A stretch of DNA of 64,000 nucleotides from Microthrixaceae bacterium (GTDB lineage: Bacteria; Actinomycetota; Acidimicrobiia; Acidimicrobiales; Acidimicrobilacustridaceae): the NCBI GenBank assembly GCA_947449015.1, contig CANFQA010000002.1:13855-77854 (forward strand), in the 5' to 3' direction. The position numbers and the translations under genes were made by a program. This document shows positions 4,366 to 50,921 of this stretch, in pieces (position 1 is the first letter of the stretch; every line of letters starts with the position of its first letter). The notes under the pieces were generated by a model. The model saw nothing but the letters and a program-made list of their open reading frames with translations. It was not told the DNA's origin and did no database searches.

Positions 4366-5269
4366 CCAGAGCGAGTGCGTCGGGTTCGAACCTGATGTCA
4401 AGGTGGTCGACTTCGCCGAGATAGTCACCGTCGACCTGATGGGGGAAGGGGCCATGGCCATCAATCGTGGCGCTTTGCACCTGCTGATGGAACGCCACAT
4501 TGGGGCTGCGGCGCAGCGCCTCTCCTGAGCCAAGCGCCGAGGCGATCATTTTCAGCGTGGGTCCGAGATCAAGTGTGCGCATCGTCACGATGCTCAACGC
4601 CGAGTCGAGCGTTGCTCCGGTATCGACATTGAAGGGTCGGGTACCGACGTAGGAATAGGGGTTGGTGTTCAGACAGACAGTGAATACGCCGTCGTCGGAT
4701 CCCGGCGCGTCGTCGACGCGAACACTGAAACGCGGTCGGTTGCGCTCGTAGCCGCGCAACCAGGTAATGAACGCGGCCCACCCGAACAGCACATGGTTGG
4801 CCCAGCGCTTCAGAGAACCGCGTCGTTCGACATCAGCCACGACTGCAGCATCGAAGCCGACGCCCACATGGAAAAGGAAATGGCGACCGTTTACCGAGCC
4901 GAGTCCGATGCGACGGATCGAGGACGCCGCTAGTGCTTCGAGAATGAGGACCGTGGCATCGATGGCATCGTCGGGGAGTCCCAGGGTGCGAGCGAACACG
5001 TTGGTGCTGCCGCCGGGAAGCGTGGCAAGTGCAGTGGCAGTGCCAGCAAGTCCGTTGGCGGCCTCGTTAAGTGTCCCATCGCCACCGAGCACCACCACTA
5101 CGTCATATCCCTCAGCGGCGGCACCCTGGGCAAGGCGGGTGGCGTGCCCACGGCGGGTGGTTTCGCACAGCGTGACGTCATGGTCGGCGGAAAGGGCCTT
5201 GTTGACGAGGACCCTCGATCGGGCAGTCACCGAGGACGCCGACGGGTTGACGATGAGCATGAGTTTCAC
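4352..5269 (-). CDS. Diacylglycerol/lipid kinase family protein (YegS/Rv2252/BmrU-like)
   Basis: LIVNPSAS, GGDGTLNE, LPGGSTNVFAR, VGVGFDA and QVDGD motifs. Confidence 0.9.
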   Translation of the reverse strand: MKLMLIVNPSASSVTARSRVLVNKALSADHDVTLCETTRRGHATRLAQGAAAEGYDVVVVLGGDGTLNEAANGLAGTATALATLPGGSTNVFARTLGLPDDAIDATVLILEALAASSIRRIGLGSVNGRHFLFHVGVGFDAAVVADVERRGSLKRWANHVLFGWAAFITWLRGYERNRPRFSVRVDDAPGSDDGVFTVCLNTNPYSYVGTRPFNVDTGATLDSALSIVTMRTLDLGPTLKMIASALGSGEALRRSPNVAFHQQVQSATIDGHGPFPHQVDGDYLGEVDHLDIRFEPDALALVIPR

Positions 5270-8534: not shown

Positions 8535-9058
8535 GCATGTCCCTCAGGGTCGATCGGACGACCGCAGAGGCGACACTGGGCGCGCCCGGATCGCACGAGA
8601 TCGTTTCCAACGGTGATGAATGCGGCAACCTGGGCTCGGCTCAGGGAGATCCGAGCGCTGGACGGATCGAGTCCAAGTGATGCGAGCGCGTCGGGATCAT
8701 CAAGATCCAGGTCGGGGTCAAGCGTGTCAGGGTCGATCTCGAGAACTTCGTCGGCCACGATAACGATGCGATCGGCGGCGTCTTCGTAGGCCACTGCGAG
8801 ACGTCCCACGCTCCAGAGAAATCCGAGTGGCTCAAGCGCGCATGGAAGCACGGCGGGTTCGAAATCGGCGCGCTCCGGAAGATCAGCGAGAATGCCCTCG
8901 AGGTACTCGCACAGCGCCGCGACCTGCTGCTTCTCAATCTTGAACGAGCAGATGCGTTCCTGATCAATGGCCTGCAGAAAAAAGGTGCGCTGTCCGGGCT
9001 CACCCTGGGTGCCGGGAACGACAACATCGGGTCGGTCGAAGTCGTAGGACTCGCTCAT
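8516..9058 (-). CDS. DUF3090 family protein
   Basis: GEPGQRTFFLQA, EKQQVAAL and C-terminal GRxxCxxCGRPIDPEGHACPRMN. ATG 9058 overlaps the upstream stop; the track's 9370 start is too long. Confidence 0.85.
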   Translation of the reverse strand: MSESYDFDRPDVVVPGTQGEPGQRTFFLQAIDQERICSFKIEKQQVAALCEYLEGILADLPERADFEPAVLPCALEPLGFLWSVGRLAVAYEDAADRIVIVADEVLEIDPDTLDPDLDLDDPDALASLGLDPSSARISLSRAQVAAFITVGNDLVRSGRAQCRLCGRPIDPEGHACPRMN

Positions 9059-42922: not shown

Positions 42923-45364
<2,442 letters not shown>

Positions 45365-45365
<1 letters not shown>

Positions 45366-45760
45366 TGCCTCTCGCCGTCGAACTCGTTTCCCCCGAGCGC
45401 ACGTTGTTCTCGGGTGAGGCCACCATGGTGCGTGCGCGCACCGTGGGCGGTGGCGATATCGCGTTCCTTACCGGTCATACCCCGTTCGTGGGGGCGCTTG
45501 CCATCTCTACGCTGGAGATCACGCTGGTCTCCGGCGGCTCCGAAGTCGTAGCCGTGCATGGTGGATTCATCGAGGTCAGCCATGACCGCGTGAAGGTGCT
45601 GTCTGATCTGGCTGAGCTCTCATCGACGATCGATGTTGAGCGGGCGCGTCGGGCCGAGGAAAAAGCACAAGCAGCGGTAGCCCGTGGCGACGAAGTCGAA
45701 GCACAGGGCGCACTGGCCCGCGCCACCGCTCGTCTCGCCGCATCCGGCCAACTGAGCTGA
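45365..45760 (+). CDS. atpC: ATP synthase F1 subunit epsilon
   Basis: VELVSPERTLFSGEA, FLTGHTP, VHGGFIEV and IDVERARRA. Confidence 0.96.
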
Positions 45761-45827
45761 TCCCGATCGGCCGCATCACGGTCGGATCGCATCTAACGTC
45801 AGTAGCCATGATCCACATGGCAGGTCG
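45728..45827 (+). repeat. Direct repeat, left copy (attL-like); includes the last 33 nt of atpC
   Basis: 45728-45814 is identical to 48905-48991 (87 bp); the match extends to 100 bp with 2 mismatches (ACAT vs TCTT). Confidence 0.97.
45764..45789 (+). terminator. Hairpin after atpC (inside the duplicated segment)
   Basis: CGATCGGCCG-CATCA-CGGTCG(G)ATCG: 10 pairs with one G-U and one bulge, no U-tract. Confidence 0.35.
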
Positions 45828-45957
45828 CTAGGTGAGCAACTGGAAACACGGGTGAGAAGTGACTTGATGTGTCTCGTAGTCGCGATTTCAAGTCGCGGAG
45901 ACCCACTGATCGCTTTCGAGAGACCCGGGTCGGGCTCACCTTCTGGTGTTCTTTGCG

Positions 45958-46518
45958 TCAAACCTCGAACATTTCGTGGCGCAATTCGAAACTGGTCTCG
46001 AGATTCGAGTCCCAATCAATGGAGCGAATGTCAACTTCAGGACCTATTCGGACTTCGGGACGGATCACCTCAAGGGTCTCTTCGAACCAGCCACCGCGGG
46101 CGACGTAGACATCGCGACCCGAGAGATGGAAGATGATTCCATGATCAATTGAGACCCTGAAGGCGAGTGCGCCTGCGATAAAGGCGTCCACCTGGGCTCG
46201 AACCACCGAAATTCGATCAATCGACTGACCCCTCTCGTGGAAGTACATAAGACCTCGGGACATTGCAGCTCGGGAATCTCCCATACCCTCCTGGATAGAG
46301 AGGGCGGCGAAGTCCTCTGGGCCGCTTTCGAGCGGTGAATCGACTAGGTCTGTGCCGATCGTGAATGAACCGGCTGAGGTAACGATATAGAGCGACCCGA
46401 CGGCGAATCGGCCTTCATGGAGCAGAGCTGAACCGCCGTAGTAATCCCATGTAGTTCCGATGTGGGAGTTGAGGATTAACTTCTCGCGTGGGGTCAAGTG
46501 TGTTTCAAACTCATTCAT
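45958..46518 (-). CDS. Acidic hypothetical protein (candidate immunity/antitoxin)
   Basis: 186 aa with about 29 D/E versus 15 K/R; ATG overlaps the stop of the upstream gene (46515-46518). No family recognised. Confidence 0.7.
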   Translation of the reverse strand: MNEFETHLTPREKLILNSHIGTTWDYYGGSALLHEGRFAVGSLYIVTSAGSFTIGTDLVDSPLESGPEDFAALSIQEGMGDSRAAMSRGLMYFHERGQSIDRISVVRAQVDAFIAGALAFRVSIDHGIIFHLSGRDVYVARGGWFEETLEVIRPEVRIGPEVDIRSIDWDSNLETSFELRHEMFEV

Positions 46519-46883
46519 GTTGAGCTCCTAACGAAGTGGATGCGTTGAGTCTTAATTGGTCCGCCGCTTTTCGAACGTGTGAGTTGGATCGAAGGAGACC
46601 CATCTCTTGATGTTGGTCGAACACTGATACTTGAACCATCGCTGAAGAGCACTATCTTCGCTCCATTTTTGGCGATAGTTGCTTTGGGGCCGTTCTTCGT
46701 CGCATAAGCAAAGAATTTTTCAGAAGAGTTCCCAGGGTTTGAACTTGCGATTCGACGACGGTTCGAACTGGATCCGGGCTCTCCGAAATAGCCTGCCTTG
46801 AGCTGGCCGAATTCCCGCACGAGTTGATGGAGGTTGCTCTGGATAGATCGTGCGCCTGGAGTACTCCCGCTACCCCCGCCCAT
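46515..46883 (-). CDS. Small basic 'MGGG' protein (candidate nuclease-type toxin)
   Basis: Starts MGGGSGS at ATG 46883, overlapping the DUF4417 end by 14 nt with GGAG upstream. 122 aa with 18 K/R versus 5 D/E; C-terminal DGSSISVRPTSRDGSPSIQL...KTQRIHF. Confidence 0.7.
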   Translation of the reverse strand: MGGGSGSTPGARSIQSNLHQLVREFGQLKAGYFGEPGSSSNRRRIASSNPGNSSEKFFAYATKNGPKATIAKNGAKIVLFSDGSSISVRPTSRDGSPSIQLTRSKSGGPIKTQRIHFVRSST

Positions 46884-47565
46884 CGTTGACTCCGTTTCTG
46901 GCAAGAGCGATCCGCGGAGCGAATATGAGCAACTCAACGGAGCGGTGCTTAAGTGAGTTCTCGATACTCGGCGAAAGGGGCCGCCCGTGGAGAAGGATAA
47001 GCGGTGGCGACAGGACTTCGGCGAGTGCGATTAGGCCTTCTTCAAAGTAGAACTTGTCTTCCCGACTTCGCCAGCAACCGTGGTTCGACACGGTAACTGG
47101 AATGCCGGATGGCACACCTGCGAAACAAAAGTCGTAGTCAATGCTGGTACTCCACCTAATCGTAGGAATGACCGTTAGGCCGCGTGACTGAAAGTAGACA
47201 CCGACTTCTCGGCTCATCCAAACATTGCCGATTCGCTTGTGACGAGGCATAGACCGATGCAATGAAAAATCCGGTGTCGCAACGCTGGAATATCTTGAGA
47301 TTCGGAACAGCTGCCGGTGAGGACTCCTCACTAAGCCGGAGATGCGATTGTCCTGAAGGTAGAAGTGGATCATCGAATCAGCTGGATCAGAGTCGCGACC
47401 AATGCGATCAAATCCGACCATATGTTTCGGGGGCTCCCTGAGGTCTGGCGGCGGAACCAGCTTGGGAATCTGTTCGGTTCCATCGGTTTGGCAAGGGGGA
47501 AGCCACTCTGGCGTCGTGACTACATGGGAAACGCTTCCCGTAGGAGCATTGGGGGGATATAGCAT
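46870..47565 (-). CDS. DUF4417 family protein
   Basis: IHFYLQD, VATPDFSLHRSMP, GNVWMSR, FQSRGLTVIPTIRW, YDFCFAGVP and ILLHGRP match the DUF4417 pattern as I recall it. Confidence 0.82.
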   Translation of the reverse strand: MLYPPNAPTGSVSHVVTTPEWLPPCQTDGTEQIPKLVPPPDLREPPKHMVGFDRIGRDSDPADSMIHFYLQDNRISGLVRSPHRQLFRISRYSSVATPDFSLHRSMPRHKRIGNVWMSREVGVYFQSRGLTVIPTIRWSTSIDYDFCFAGVPSGIPVTVSNHGCWRSREDKFYFEEGLIALAEVLSPPLILLHGRPLSPSIENSLKHRSVELLIFAPRIALARNGVNDGRG

Positions 47566-47621
47566 CTAAGTAATCCTTGGTGTTCGTGTAGGGAATGCAG
47601 GGATTTAGGCGCAAGCCGCTG

Positions 47622-47651
47622 GTGTGGGCGGAGGTGCAACTCCGCCCACAC
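47622..47651. terminator. Perfect 12-bp hairpin between the HTH-peptidase gene and DUF4417
   Basis: GTGTGGGCGGAG-GTGCAA-CTCCGCCCACAC. Confidence 0.6.
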
Positions 47652-47676
47652 ATCTGCTTGGTTGAGCTGCGTGTGT

Positions 47677-48783
47677 CTAGTTCCAGGAGTTGAGGTCCTC
47701 CTTGACCGAAGGAATTCGCTTATTGAGGCGAGAGTTCCAGGGAATGCGACCGTCACGCTGAAGTCTTCCGATGATGAGCGATTCACTAATCCCTCGGCGT
47801 CTGGAAAGTTCGACTACCTGAGCTTCGGTTACGGGTCCGGTGGATAGGTCCTCAAGATCAGGAACGAGCCAACTTCCTGCTTGAAGGTCCGCTGCAAGTT
47901 CTCGACTTGCCTCCTCAACCCTTTCAGAAGATTCGGGATCACTTATGTAGATCCCACCATTTTGGAGATGACCAAGTGATACGTGTGCAAGCTCATGCGC
48001 AATCGTGAACATGATCTTGTCGCTTCGCCCACCGCGACCTGAGATGGAAATGAGCGGGTGACCATTGACGACTGTGCAGACTCCATCAATGTTCCCCCCG
48101 GAATACGGAGGTACGAAGACAAGCGCAATTCCGACCTCGGAAAACCTCTCTGGCAATTCGCGAAAATCCTCACGCGTCCTGACGGTGGTCGCCAGTGAGC
48201 CACCAAGTTGTTCGAGGACAGTTACGTTTGCGAGCGGAGGCAGGTCGCCAGAAACGAGACTTCGAGACTCTGCAATCCAAGCAAGTTGCTGTCGGGAAAC
48301 TGGCCCGATCTTTTCTTTCCTGCGCGCAGAGGCCGAAAATATGATTTCGTCCTCTATGGAACTTATGCCGAGCAACTTATTTGCAGCCTTCTCAATCGTT
48401 TGCGGGTCCGAGTCGGGAAGCGTCCCCCTGCGAATCATCTCGCGTGTTGGCAGAATCCGCTCCACGCGGCTCCGGCTCTCGATTTCGCCGAGTCGTCTGA
48501 GAGTTCCTGAATCTTGGAATGCTGAGTTGAGGTTCTCACTCGCTCGAATCGTCATCCAACTGAGGGCAGAACCACCAAGGGCTCGACTTAGGTCAAGCGC
48601 CTCCTCCGGTCGGAGTGGAGATCGATGATTGACAAGGTTAGAGAGAGACTGCGCAGACCAACCGAGGACCCGAGCAAGGTCTGCTTGCGACCAACCTCGA
48701 GCCTCTATGTGTAGCCCAATTGCCTCGCGAATGGAGGAAAATATCGGGCTTTCATCATACATATCAAGGAATCCGTAATTCAC
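47677..48783 (-). CDS. XRE/HigA-type HTH fused to ImmA/IrrE-family zinc metallopeptidase
   Basis: N-terminal HTH ARGWSQADLARVLGWSAQSLSNLVNHRSPL...ALDLSRALG, then NIDGVC, DKIMFTIAHELAH (HExxH) and downstream ELAAD. Confidence 0.88.
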   Translation of the reverse strand: MNYGFLDMYDESPIFSSIREAIGLHIEARGWSQADLARVLGWSAQSLSNLVNHRSPLRPEEALDLSRALGGSALSWMTIRASENLNSAFQDSGTLRRLGEIESRSRVERILPTREMIRRGTLPDSDPQTIEKAANKLLGISSIEDEIIFSASARRKEKIGPVSRQQLAWIAESRSLVSGDLPPLANVTVLEQLGGSLATTVRTREDFRELPERFSEVGIALVFVPPYSGGNIDGVCTVVNGHPLISISGRGGRSDKIMFTIAHELAHVSLGHLQNGGIYISDPESSERVEEASRELAADLQAGSWLVPDLEDLSTGPVTEAQVVELSRRRGISESLIIGRLQRDGRIPWNSRLNKRIPSVKEDLNSWN

Positions 48784-48791
48784 GGATACTT

Positions 48792-48820
48792 GGTATAGAC
48801 CTGTGGATAATAAGTCGCAA
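48792..48820 (-). promoter_or_regulatory. Candidate promoter of the islet with a DnaA-box match in its spacer
   Basis: Minus strand reads TTGCGA-17 nt-TATACC, 8 nt before GTG 48783; the spacer contains TTATCCACA (48802-48810). Confidence 0.4.
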
Positions 48821-48904
48821 CCTTATCTTCACGAAGTAACTGCCAGCGCCGAATGCCCGAACCGTCGCACTCACATTTCGAGACATTTGGCTAATGGGGC
48901 CAAG

Positions 48905-49004
48905 GCTCGTCTCGCCGCATCCGGCCAACTGAGCTGATCCCGATCGGCCGCATCACGGTCGGATCGCATCTAACGTCAGTAGCCATGATCCTCTTGGCAG
49001 GTCG
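48905..49004 (+). repeat. Direct repeat, right copy (attR-like)
   Basis: Matches 45728-45827 at 98/100 positions; ends 12 nt before the GAP gene start. Confidence 0.97.
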
Positions 49005-49016
49005 AGACCAAGCGTC

Positions 49017-49667
49017 ATGAGCATGAATCTCGTTTTTCTCGGTCTTGCCACCACAGCCTCGCCATTGTTCCTTTTGGTGAGCGTGCTCATGCTGGCTCAG
49101 TCGCAGCGATTACGCGAGGCCACAGCACTGGCTATCGGATGGTTCCTGTCCATCGGGTTTTGTGCCGCCACGGTGCTACTGGTGGGTTCTGCCCTTCCTC
49201 AGGAAGGCGGACACCCGAATGGCCATCTCATGGCTGCGCTCGACCTGTTGCTAGGAGCAGGGCTCGCCCTGCTCGCCCTGCGATTCCGTCGCCGATTTCA
49301 GCGCGACCCGACCGCTGCAGTGCCGAAATGGCTCGACCGGGTTGGCAACATGTCGGTCATCGTGGCCTGTGGTCTTGGCATGTTCCTGCCGCCAACGGTT
49401 CTATCGTTCGCTGCCGGCAACGAGATCGTGCAACAGCATGTTTCGGTGCGCGCCGAATGGATTTTTGTGATCGTCTACGCGGCGATCGGTTCGATCCTGC
49501 AGTTCGCGCCGTTGGCTGTTGTTGCTGCGCAGCCGAAGCGTTCCACCCAACGACTTCTTATAGCCCAAAGGTGGCTCGAGGCTCACTGGCAGCAGGTGCT
49601 GATGCTGCTGTTCGCTGTGATCTCGTTGTACCTGATGGGCAAGGGTGCGTATTCGCTCAGTCGGTGA
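49017..49667 (+). CDS. GAP family membrane protein (LysE superfamily-like)
   Basis: LATTASP...LML, six TM helices, PKWLDRV and RWLEAHWQQV. Confidence 0.75.
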   Translation: MSMNLVFLGLATTASPLFLLVSVLMLAQSQRLREATALAIGWFLSIGFCAATVLLVGSALPQEGGHPNGHLMAALDLLLGAGLALLALRFRRRFQRDPTAAVPKWLDRVGNMSVIVACGLGMFLPPTVLSFAAGNEIVQQHVSVRAEWIFVIVYAAIGSILQFAPLAVVAAQPKRSTQRLLIAQRWLEAHWQQVLMLLFAVISLYLMGKGAYSLSR

Positions 49668-50484
49668 TGCGGATGTCGGCGATGCCGTCGATGGGTTCGG
49701 GATAGTGCATGTCGAGCGCCTCGAGCGTGGCGACAAGAAGTTGTGACACCACGAGGTTGCGGTACCACTTGTGGTCTCCCGGGATGATGTACCAAGGCGC
49801 ATGATCAGTGGAGGTTTCGCCAATGGCCTGTTCGTAGGCCTCGGTGTAGGCGTCCCAATGGGCGCGTTCGGCAATATCGCCATGCTCGAACTTCCAGTGT
49901 TTGGCCGGATTATCCAGACGTTCCTGAAGTCGGGCCCGCTGCTCGTCTTTCGAGATGTGGAGGAACAACTTGATGATGGTGGTGCCCTCATCGGCCAGCA
50001 TCTGTTCGAAGCTGCGGATGTGCTCGTAGCGGCGATGCCAAACATGTGCAGGAACGAGGTCGTTCACTCGCACCACCAGCACATCTTCGTAATGGCTGCG
50101 GTTGAAGATGGTGATGTGACCGTTGCGGGGTGCCTGCTGGTGCACTCGCCACAGATAGTCATGGGCCAGTTCAACCTCGTTGGGGCGTTTGAAGTTGGCC
50201 ACTTGCACGCCCAATGGATTGACCGTGCGGAACACATGCTTGATGGTTCCGTCCTTGCCTGAGGAGTCCATGCCCTGCAACACGATGAGCACCTTGTGTT
50301 TCGACTCGGCGTACAGCGTCTGTTGGAGATCGCCGAGCTGCTCGTTGAGCGAGGCAAGTAGCGCAGCGCGGTCCTCCTTGGTGCCCTCGAACCCGTCTGT
50401 GGAATGAGTGCTCCAGTCATCGAGGCGAACTTGATGCCCCGGTTTCACCCGGAAGTGATCAGTGCGGATCTCGTTATCGCTCAC
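49657..50484 (-). CDS. ppk2: Polyphosphate kinase 2 family (polyphosphate:nucleotide phosphotransferase)
   Basis: LQGMDSSGKDG Walker A, FNRSHYEDVL, LHISKDEQRARL...R, WKFEHGD and WYIIPGDHKWYR. Confidence 0.93.
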   Translation of the reverse strand: MSDNEIRTDHFRVKPGHQVRLDDWSTHSTDGFEGTKEDRAALLASLNEQLGDLQQTLYAESKHKVLIVLQGMDSSGKDGTIKHVFRTVNPLGVQVANFKRPNEVELAHDYLWRVHQQAPRNGHITIFNRSHYEDVLVVRVNDLVPAHVWHRRYEHIRSFEQMLADEGTTIIKLFLHISKDEQRARLQERLDNPAKHWKFEHGDIAERAHWDAYTEAYEQAIGETSTDHAPWYIIPGDHKWYRNLVVSQLLVATLEALDMHYPEPIDGIADIRITD

Positions 50485-50921
50485 GATCGGTTCCGTCGCT
50501 CGGCGTTACGTCGACCAACCATTGAGCCGATAACTCTCGCTGCCTTGTCCACGGTGACCTCAGGCTTTGCCGCCGATGTGTCACTGGATGGTGCTTTCGA
50601 CCCAACCGGTGGCTTCGGCGCGCCGATGCGGGCCACCTTGTTGAGTCCCTTGCCCACCACGGCACCAGCGCGCCGGCCAGTGGCCTCGAAGGAGTCACCC
50701 CGGCCTTCAACTGCTGCTTCATGAGCGCCACGTTCGAACGCGGCGCTGGTGTTGAGGCCGAGTGACAGACACACACGAGCCACGACGAACCCGATCAGGA
50801 AGATGACGGCAACCCACACCCAACCGAAGATGGAGTCAGGAATGCCGGTAAGCATGAACAGCAGACCCACTGCAGCAGCGCCGACGACTGCAGACAAAGC
50901 GGCGATGAGTAGGCGGATCAT
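50481..50921 (-). CDS. Hypothetical membrane protein
   Basis: Two N-terminal TM helices and a basic/Ala-rich tail; GTGA overlap with ppk2. Confidence 0.65.
   Translation of the reverse strand: MIRLLIAALSAVVGAAAVGLLFMLTGIPDSIFGWVWVAVIFLIGFVVARVCLSLGLNTSAAFERGAHEAAVEGRGDSFEATGRRAGAVVGKGLNKVARIGAPKPPVGSKAPSSDTSAAKPEVTVDKAARVIGSMVGRRNAERRNRS

Follow-up and report, generated by a model that had tools for sequence, protein, structure and literature searches.

A 3.1 kb islet of four genes lies between the ATP synthase epsilon gene (atpC) and its native downstream neighbour in a 64,000 nt stretch of a Microthrixaceae bacterium genome (GenBank assembly GCA_947449015.1, contig CANFQA010000002.1, positions 13,855–77,854, forward strand). 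This whole stretch is called the window here, and coordinates without a prefix are those of the window. The islet, which codes for an XRE/M78 regulator, a DUF4417 protein and two small proteins named p140 and p186, is a real, single-copy, horizontally exchanged accessory cassette, and it now moves between lineages inside homologous-recombination tracts. For the founding insertion at atpC, we give slightly better than even credence to a homology-anchored displacement of the 3' tail of the gene, which would need no dedicated integrase.

The repeat-bracketed islet at atpC

The features that frame the insertion are:

45365..45760, + strand: atpC (ATP synthase epsilon), intact, last gene of the atp operon (Pfam ATP-synt_DE_N, 3.7e-21; ATP-synt_DE, 2e-06)
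45722..45827, + strand: left repeat copy, 39 nt of the atpC end including the stop codon plus 67 nt with two stem-loops
48899..49004, + strand: right repeat copy, a displaced atpC tail (39 nt coding plus 67 nt), directly upstream of SfLAP
49017..49667, + strand: SfLAP (Sap-like membrane protein) gene, the native downstream neighbour of atpC at empty sites (Pfam PF11139)

A preliminary description of the locus had proposed an integrase-less inserted islet of low GC and antisense genes, bracketed by near-identical 100 bp repeats that hold the end of atpC and its downstream hairpin and leave the gene intact. All of this was borne out. Positions 45728–45827 and 48905–49004 match at 98 of 100 bases, with 87 bases exact and mismatches at 45815 and 45817; chance alone would give exact repeats of up to about 15 nt in 64 kb. 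A repeat search widens the pair to 106 nt at 96% identity (45722–45827 and 48899–49004), and the 'loose echo' of atpC reported upstream of the right copy proved to be a weak, real extension of the repeat to that length. The repeat contains the final 10 codons of atpC and the stop codon, followed by 67 nt with two stem-loops (at about 45756–45790 and 45805–45821), the folding energy of which is no better than that of shuffled sequences (z −1.2). The second stem-loop is intact in the left copy and at the empty site of the nearest species (G022), and is broken in the right copy. The 100-mer occurs twice in the whole 2.38 Mb genome, and neither a third attachment-site (att) copy nor a plasmid-borne attP was found in the 2.38 Mb searched. 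Reading by eye, which is not a formal test, revealed no dif-like palindrome in the repeat of the type used as a docking site by integrative mobile elements exploiting Xer (IMEX).

Between the repeats the GC content is 0.538, compared with 0.63 on the left and 0.61 on the right (0.54 vs 0.62 overall), or 8–9 points below the host, and all four genes are on the minus strand. Domain and family searches detected no recombinase domain in the four open reading frames (ORFs) of the islet; nor are there integrase remnants inside it, the non-coding ends being merely 130 and 115 nt long. In a comparison set of 34 genomes (species) of the genus, the nearest species has atpC, one copy of the 100 nt sequence and then SfLAP, an empty site of the kind that the preliminary description had proposed to look for in close relatives, and atpC also adjoins SfLAP/PPK2 in G005, G006, G019, G008 and G016.

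Contigs assembled from the probable source run break at both repeat copies, as expected for an exact repeat of 87 nt; the breaks would also suit an assembly artefact, a graph loop through the shared 100 bp node. Against this, a 10.3 kb Logan contig from an unrelated 2017 freshwater run is collinear with the window from 45066 to 50000 and crosses both junctions, and a 3.95 kb contig from another run spans 45725–49668. Two ENA scaffolds (349 kb and 62 kb) and several JGI contigs from other lakes have this structure too. Junction-spanning sequence, which had been proposed as a check, is therefore available from independent lakes. Read depth in the probable source sample is also even (37 in the islet vs 43 and 35 in the flanks), and in relatives this architecture comes with repeats that are too dissimilar for an assembler to merge. 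An artefact was rejected on the basis of the spanning contigs and the even depth, and we regard its probability as negligible.

Movement of the islet in homologous-recombination tracts

The islet occurs in two haplotypes. Haplotype W comprises the window and the ENA contigs, and haplotype Z comprises L049, L150–L155 and two Logan contigs, from several lakes. Nucleotide identity between W and Z varies sharply along the locus:

atpG-atpD-atpC 5' part: 93.0%
atpC 3' half: 76.0%
left repeat: 86.8%
islet interior: 97.8%
right repeat: 86.8%
SfLAP-PPK2: 78.6%
further right: 91.1%

The non-coding tail of the islet (45828..45957) is 99% identical between W and Z, beginning exactly at 45828, and the left flank of Z is 93–100% identical to the empty-site species G022. 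At the place of the upstream 'echo', the right copy of haplotype Z reads GCCACC, the same as in atpC.

Within the W group, the limits of individual imports are visible. Loci L129 and L130 are 99.7% identical to the window over 44381–49000 and 97.8% identical from there to 50600, but outside this tract identity falls to 86.7% left of 44380 and to 80.7% at 50601–50900. Another W-group locus, L132, switches at about 44670–44880. Import tracts carrying the islet thus end at different positions in atpD (about 44380 vs about 44670–44880), with a right end near 50600, and tracts with different end points, a near-identical interior and diverged flanks show that the islet spreads by homologous recombination. 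Exchange of the cassette by this process was one of the options offered in the preliminary description, and it is directly shown by these tracts of nearly 100% identity. The same description had taken the near identity of the two repeats as a sign of a recent event, which is doubtful, since the same islet in haplotype Z has repeats only 87% alike, compared with 98% in W. The close match in the window is therefore no proof of recent insertion, and may reflect gene conversion or a conspecific donor.

The part of atpC coding for the C-terminal helices (45480–45720) is only 70–78% identical between close lineages, compared with 93–98% for the rest of the operon, a divergence due either to fast evolution of this domain or to repeated import of foreign tails.

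Origin of the insertion

A search for other cargo downstream of atpC in relatives had been proposed, and such cargo is present in G015, G021 and G024, while G003 and G023 carry diverged forms of the same cassette. In G003 the same four genes (41–57% aa identity) lie at the same place and in the same orientation, between atpC and a 236 bp fragment of the atpC 3' end (84% identity). In G023 only a p186 homologue (59% aa identity) and the end of p140 remain, beside IS3. In G015 a 439 aa protein and a lipoprotein-like protein are encoded between two complete atpC copies (L016:1564–1959 and 4400–4795) that form a 736 bp duplication. These copies are 97–100% identical for about 600 bp and then 68–74% in the last 130 bp, and no two of the four tails of atpC in G015 and G003 are more than 74% alike. 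These differences indicate that each cargo travels with its own atpC tail. In the window, where the copies are 98% alike, donor and resident alleles are indistinguishable. A 3545 aa ORF fills the atpC-PPK2 interval of G021 (L018:2035–12672; a complete genome), and two hydrolase genes lie downstream of atpC in G024. Given such varied cargo across species, the atpC-PPK2 interval, where the atp operon ends, is a hot spot of recombination throughout the genus. At this site in G023, an IS3-family element (rve, HTH_Tnp_1; L015:2460–3616) has replaced most of the diverged cassette.

The same arrangement recurs at other genes. G015 (L016:5569–8258) and G003 (L017:1718–4398) each carry a two-gene cargo bracketed by a 111–123 bp duplication of the PPK2 3' end. 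It specifies a 437 aa protein without a family and a 196 aa lipoprotein-like protein, and the larger of these has a 46%-identical copy at the atpC site of G015. Comparison of the whole genome of the window's own bacterium (G000) with itself found a second case on contig C10 (C10:28637–33916; L137:2138–7417), where a racemase-like gene is followed by a convergent gene for a 1321 aa FN3/beta-propeller surface protein, a 456 bp 3' fragment of the racemase-like gene and the next gene. The C10 fragment consists of 368 bp at 97.6% and 88 bp at 91% identity, the repeat ends exactly at the stop codon, and G022 has about 1 kb where the insertion occupies 4.8 kb, the insert being absent. The genome's only non-Xer tyrosine integrase (C10:14182–16400; L142) lies beside a tRNA-Arg gene about 13 kb upstream of the C10 insertion. 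A further repeat pair in this genome (C63, 251 bp, ends of acyl-CoA dehydrogenase genes) looks like paralogues at a contig end and was not counted.

In every case across the genus the order is an intact gene, cargo facing that gene, a displaced 3' fragment and the original neighbour. The duplications differ in length, being 106 bp (window), 236 bp (G003) and 736 bp (G015) at atpC, 111–123 bp at PPK2 and 456 bp at the racemase-like gene. Those at atpC begin 39, 236 and about 680 nt before the stop codon, and their respective ends lie at +67, on the stop codon itself and at +53, whereas a fixed crossover site would leave uniform end points. The 3' ends of the repeats fall at the stop codon (G003, the PPK2 site and C10) or just past a terminator hairpin (window and G015). 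The 5' ends are sharp, and at the 5' boundaries there are scattered matches only, with a weak 'echo' of about 20 nt in the window. Both the length of the duplication and the anchor gene (atpC, PPK2 or racemase-like) vary independently of the three unrelated cargos.

All versions of the islet lack a recombinase gene. No tyrosine recombinase (PF00589) is encoded within about 19 kb of atpC in the 34 genomes of the genus, most of which carry two Xer-type genes only. G015, with two such insertions, has no tyrosine recombinase beyond two Xer-like ones and no serine recombinase. Taken together, the variable duplications, unrelated cargo and lack of an integrase near atpC favour tail displacement over a fixed att site. 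In such an event, incoming DNA with an atpC tail and cargo would have recombined with the resident atpC, either by a single Campbell-type crossover of a circularised fragment or by one homologous and one illegitimate end. The functional atpC would now end in the incoming tail, the left copy providing its C-terminus and terminator, while the resident tail and terminator would have been pushed downstream as the right copy, which would keep the native sequence upstream of SfLAP, so that the genes on either side would stay functional. The two copies could later recombine with each other, giving a clean deletion of the islet or conversion of one copy to the other.

Homology-facilitated illegitimate recombination, or C-terminal displacement, has been proposed for Rhs, contact-dependent inhibition (CDI) and type VI secretion system (T6SS) effector-immunity loci (PMC5361080). 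As in the proposal for those loci, the incoming DNA would share only the upstream part of the resident gene, a new 3' end and cargo would be installed, and the old 3' end would be orphaned downstream; alternative cargos accumulate at one locus. The atpC case differs in that the anchor is a housekeeping gene (atpC, as well as PPK2 and the racemase-like gene) rather than a polymorphic toxin gene, and in that the cargo is a separate, convergent operon and the displaced piece a non-functional tail plus terminator; in both settings the mechanism is inferred. Hot spots for defence and accessory genes flanked by core genes, with exchange by recombination in the flanks, have been described for E. coli, Pseudomonas and Acinetobacter. 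The interval between atpC and SfLAP/PPK2 is likewise a variable slot with transfer through its flanks, and its content depends on the species (this cassette, the 437 aa plus lipoprotein pair, the 3545 aa giant, hydrolases or IS3). What sets it apart from such hot spots is that its insertions come with extensive duplication of the 3' end of the anchor gene, a feature not generated by plain allelic replacement.

Several points weigh against tail displacement. The founding event is one that we infer rather than observe, and there is no clear microhomology at the 5' junctions. The high identity between W and Z stops within about 10–20 nt of each repeat's inner edge. Crossing over simply within the repeats does not predict such a limit, which calls either for flanks so divergent that they act as barriers or for gene conversion at a later stage. 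When the four repeat copies (left and right, W and Z) were parsed against G022, the result was a mosaic in which no clean crossover could be placed. In other phyla, relatives of the cargo module are found at tRNA and tmRNA genes, in islets of the classical att type. ComEC and DprA were found, but as non-competent control genomes have them as well, DNA uptake is unproven.

The att-type islets of relatives keep a site-specific origin as the main rival, albeit one that we consider rather unlikely. By this account the 106 bp repeats would be attL and attR, the work of a recombinase (tyrosine or serine) since lost or acting in trans, with an attP that carried a repairing atpC tail, much as in a cis-mobilizable element (CIME) or a reduced island. 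The islet resembles these in being small, in lacking a recombinase and in having direct repeats that include and restore the 3' end of the target (106 nt). Islets with relatives of the cargo module include L040, with perfect 43 bp repeats running from the anticodon loop to the 3' end of tRNA-Pro and an Xis-like HTH_17 gene but no integrase; L052, with 45 bp of tRNA-Ile and a tyrosine integrase inside; L042, with an 80 bp repeat directly after tmRNA; and L091, with 131 bp of the mutS2 end and no integrase. A helix-turn-helix (HTH) domain with an M78 peptidase is an ImmR/ImmA-type switch, usually found beside the int genes of integrative elements. The tRNA-Arg-linked integrase and one large serine recombinase of the bacterium's own genome could act in trans, and the abrupt end of W-Z identity at the inner repeat edges is also what such an origin would leave. 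On the other hand, the preliminary suggestion that atpC serves as attB for an integrase found no direct support. There is no attP-like third copy in the genome, and among the 34 genomes of the genus neither an integrase at or near atpC nor a cognate integrase-bearing atpC element was found; no related integrative and conjugative or integrative and mobilizable elements (ICE/IME) were seen in tandem at atpC in the genomes searched. The repeat copies do not behave as parts of the element, and neither travels with the islet: both differ by 13% between W and Z, while the interior differs by 2%. One att core can hardly account for duplications of 236 and 736 bp alongside that of 106 bp at atpC, or for the recurrence of this architecture with cargo that has no link to the module. 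Excision circles and empty-site joints were not found in contigs of four runs, which is weak evidence because contigs drop rare forms.

It is still less probable, and in our view improbable, that the XRE/M78-DUF4417 islets form one widespread class of recombinase-less cassettes whose docking points are the terminators or 3' ends of conserved genes (atpC in the window, and in other phyla mutS2, tRNA-Pro and tmRNA) and which duplicate 40–130 nt by an undescribed mechanism, such as template switching by the host, directed by a terminator or hairpin, or an activity that the cassette itself supplies. Highly doubtful is an old, vertically inherited resident that was repeatedly lost by recombination between its repeats, the empty sites then being deletions and not ancestral. 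Diverged cassettes at the same site in G003 and G023 agree with long residence, as do the repeats of Z, which at only 87% identity mark a structure that is not young, and a repeat-mediated deletion would restore a perfect single copy. However, W and Z have cassettes 98% identical to each other and only 59% (aa) identical to that of G023, even though all three are separated by small and similar distances in their core genes, a pattern at odds with vertical descent; the cassette's GC content is 8–9 points below that of the host, and the recombination tracts that carry it show horizontal movement. Capture by non-homologous end joining (NHEJ) at a staggered break was also considered and rejected, since Ku was not found in the 96.9%-complete genome. 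Tail displacement stays the reading we prefer.

The cargo module

The features inside the islet, in the order of the window, are:

45828..45957, − strand: islet tail, 130 nt of non-coding sequence after the last cassette gene, with GC-rich palindromes (read from the sequence)
45958..46518, − strand: p186, an acidic 186 aa protein matching no known family, third member of the DUF4417 module
46515..46886, − strand: p140, a basic protein with a true length of about 123 aa, starting MGGGSG and with a conserved core that ends in QKIHF
46870..47565, − strand: DUF4417 protein, 231 aa (Pfam PF14386, 5.5e-38; phrog_940, 2.6e-38)
47677..48783, − strand: XRE-family HTH fused to an M78 (ImmA/IrrE-type, HExxH) peptidase, 368 aa, first cassette gene (Pfam HTH_3, Peptidase_M78)
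48784..48898, − strand: promoter/leader region of the cassette, with a motif, CCTGTGGATA (48800–48809), common to the diverged G003 cassette

The palindromes of the islet tail are likely to be the cassette's own terminator; consensus scans of the islet for promoters and terminators gave matches no more frequent than in shuffled sequences. DUF4417, p140 and p186 form a conserved module found in more than 25 loci of genomes and metagenomes, in two gene orders, and an HTH/M78 gene often heads it. Homologues of p186 adjoin DUF4417 in more than 20 loci. The protein itself has no match in Pfam, PHROG, NCBIfam or PADLOC, nor by tblastn in 50,697 phage and 72,556 plasmid records, and a word-indexed protein search returned close relatives only. 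The glycine-rich N-terminus and QKIHF core of p140 are kept in 18 homologues, with hidden Markov model (HMM) matches beside DUF4417; their N-termini read MGGGSG, or MG followed by GGG within eight residues (window and loci L040–L120). The gene is often missed by gene callers because it overlaps the stop codon of DUF4417, which always precedes this Gly-tagged protein. Several DUF4417 islets duplicate a terminator hairpin. In L042, the 80 bp repeat (2637–2716 and 8884–8963) that bounds a 6.2 kb DUF4417 islet after tmRNA is itself a strong terminator-like palindrome.

An AlphaFold2 model of the DUF4417 protein (pLDDT 89.6) gave no Foldseek match in PDB at E ≤ 0.001, while exhaustive structural alignment placed archaeosine tRNA-guanine transglycosylase (TGT), DpdA and QTRT2 on top (Z 9.4–10, with TGT and DpdA at 9.9–10, against a TIM-barrel background of about 7–8). 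The DUF4417 of phages frequently occurs in fusion with a ParB-CTPase fold (10.1101/2025.10.10.680097). For the islet protein, the resemblance of the predicted structure to the TGT/DpdA fold is a lead and not a function. A DUF4417-ParB-type fusion recalls the DpdA/DpdB pair, in which DpdA is the DNA preQ0 insertase.

The HTH/M78 protein has an intact HELAH motif and matches the PADLOC model PD-Lambda-2_B (3.4e-19) over nearly its whole length. A 292 aa 'truncated' regulator annotated in some contigs reflects a different start call only, as the DNA is identical. PD-lambda-2B is toxic when expressed alone, and is part of a toxin-antitoxin-like abortive-infection system (PMC9519451). While the first cassette gene resembles the B component of that system (an Xre-HTH/peptidase fusion), the islet is without a HigB-like A or a P4-antitoxin-like C component, and the partners are instead DUF4417, the Gly-tagged basic protein and the acidic protein. 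Membership in PD-lambda-2 was therefore rejected, only B being matched and the other three proteins giving no PADLOC hit. The cassette is probably a regulated four-gene module of toxin/immunity- or defence-like character, and its cargo can be read as a toxin-immunity or anti-phage module switched by a repressor/protease.

This uncharacterised, conserved four-gene module, present in small islets in several phyla, is a candidate for a new toxin/immunity or anti-phage system, and, like the repeated docking at gene ends without a recombinase, it merits further work. That one genus shows this signature at three anchor genes and with three cargos suggests that the route is a general one. It can be searched for by looking a few kb downstream of intact core genes for incomplete copies of their 3' parts. 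Streamlined planktonic bacteria have very few classical mobile elements and yet have flexible genomes. The atpC locus illustrates how genes may be gained without integrases or transposases, in that a cassette would arrive on the tail of an essential gene, displace the resident tail and then spread between lineages by homologous recombination in its core-gene flanks.

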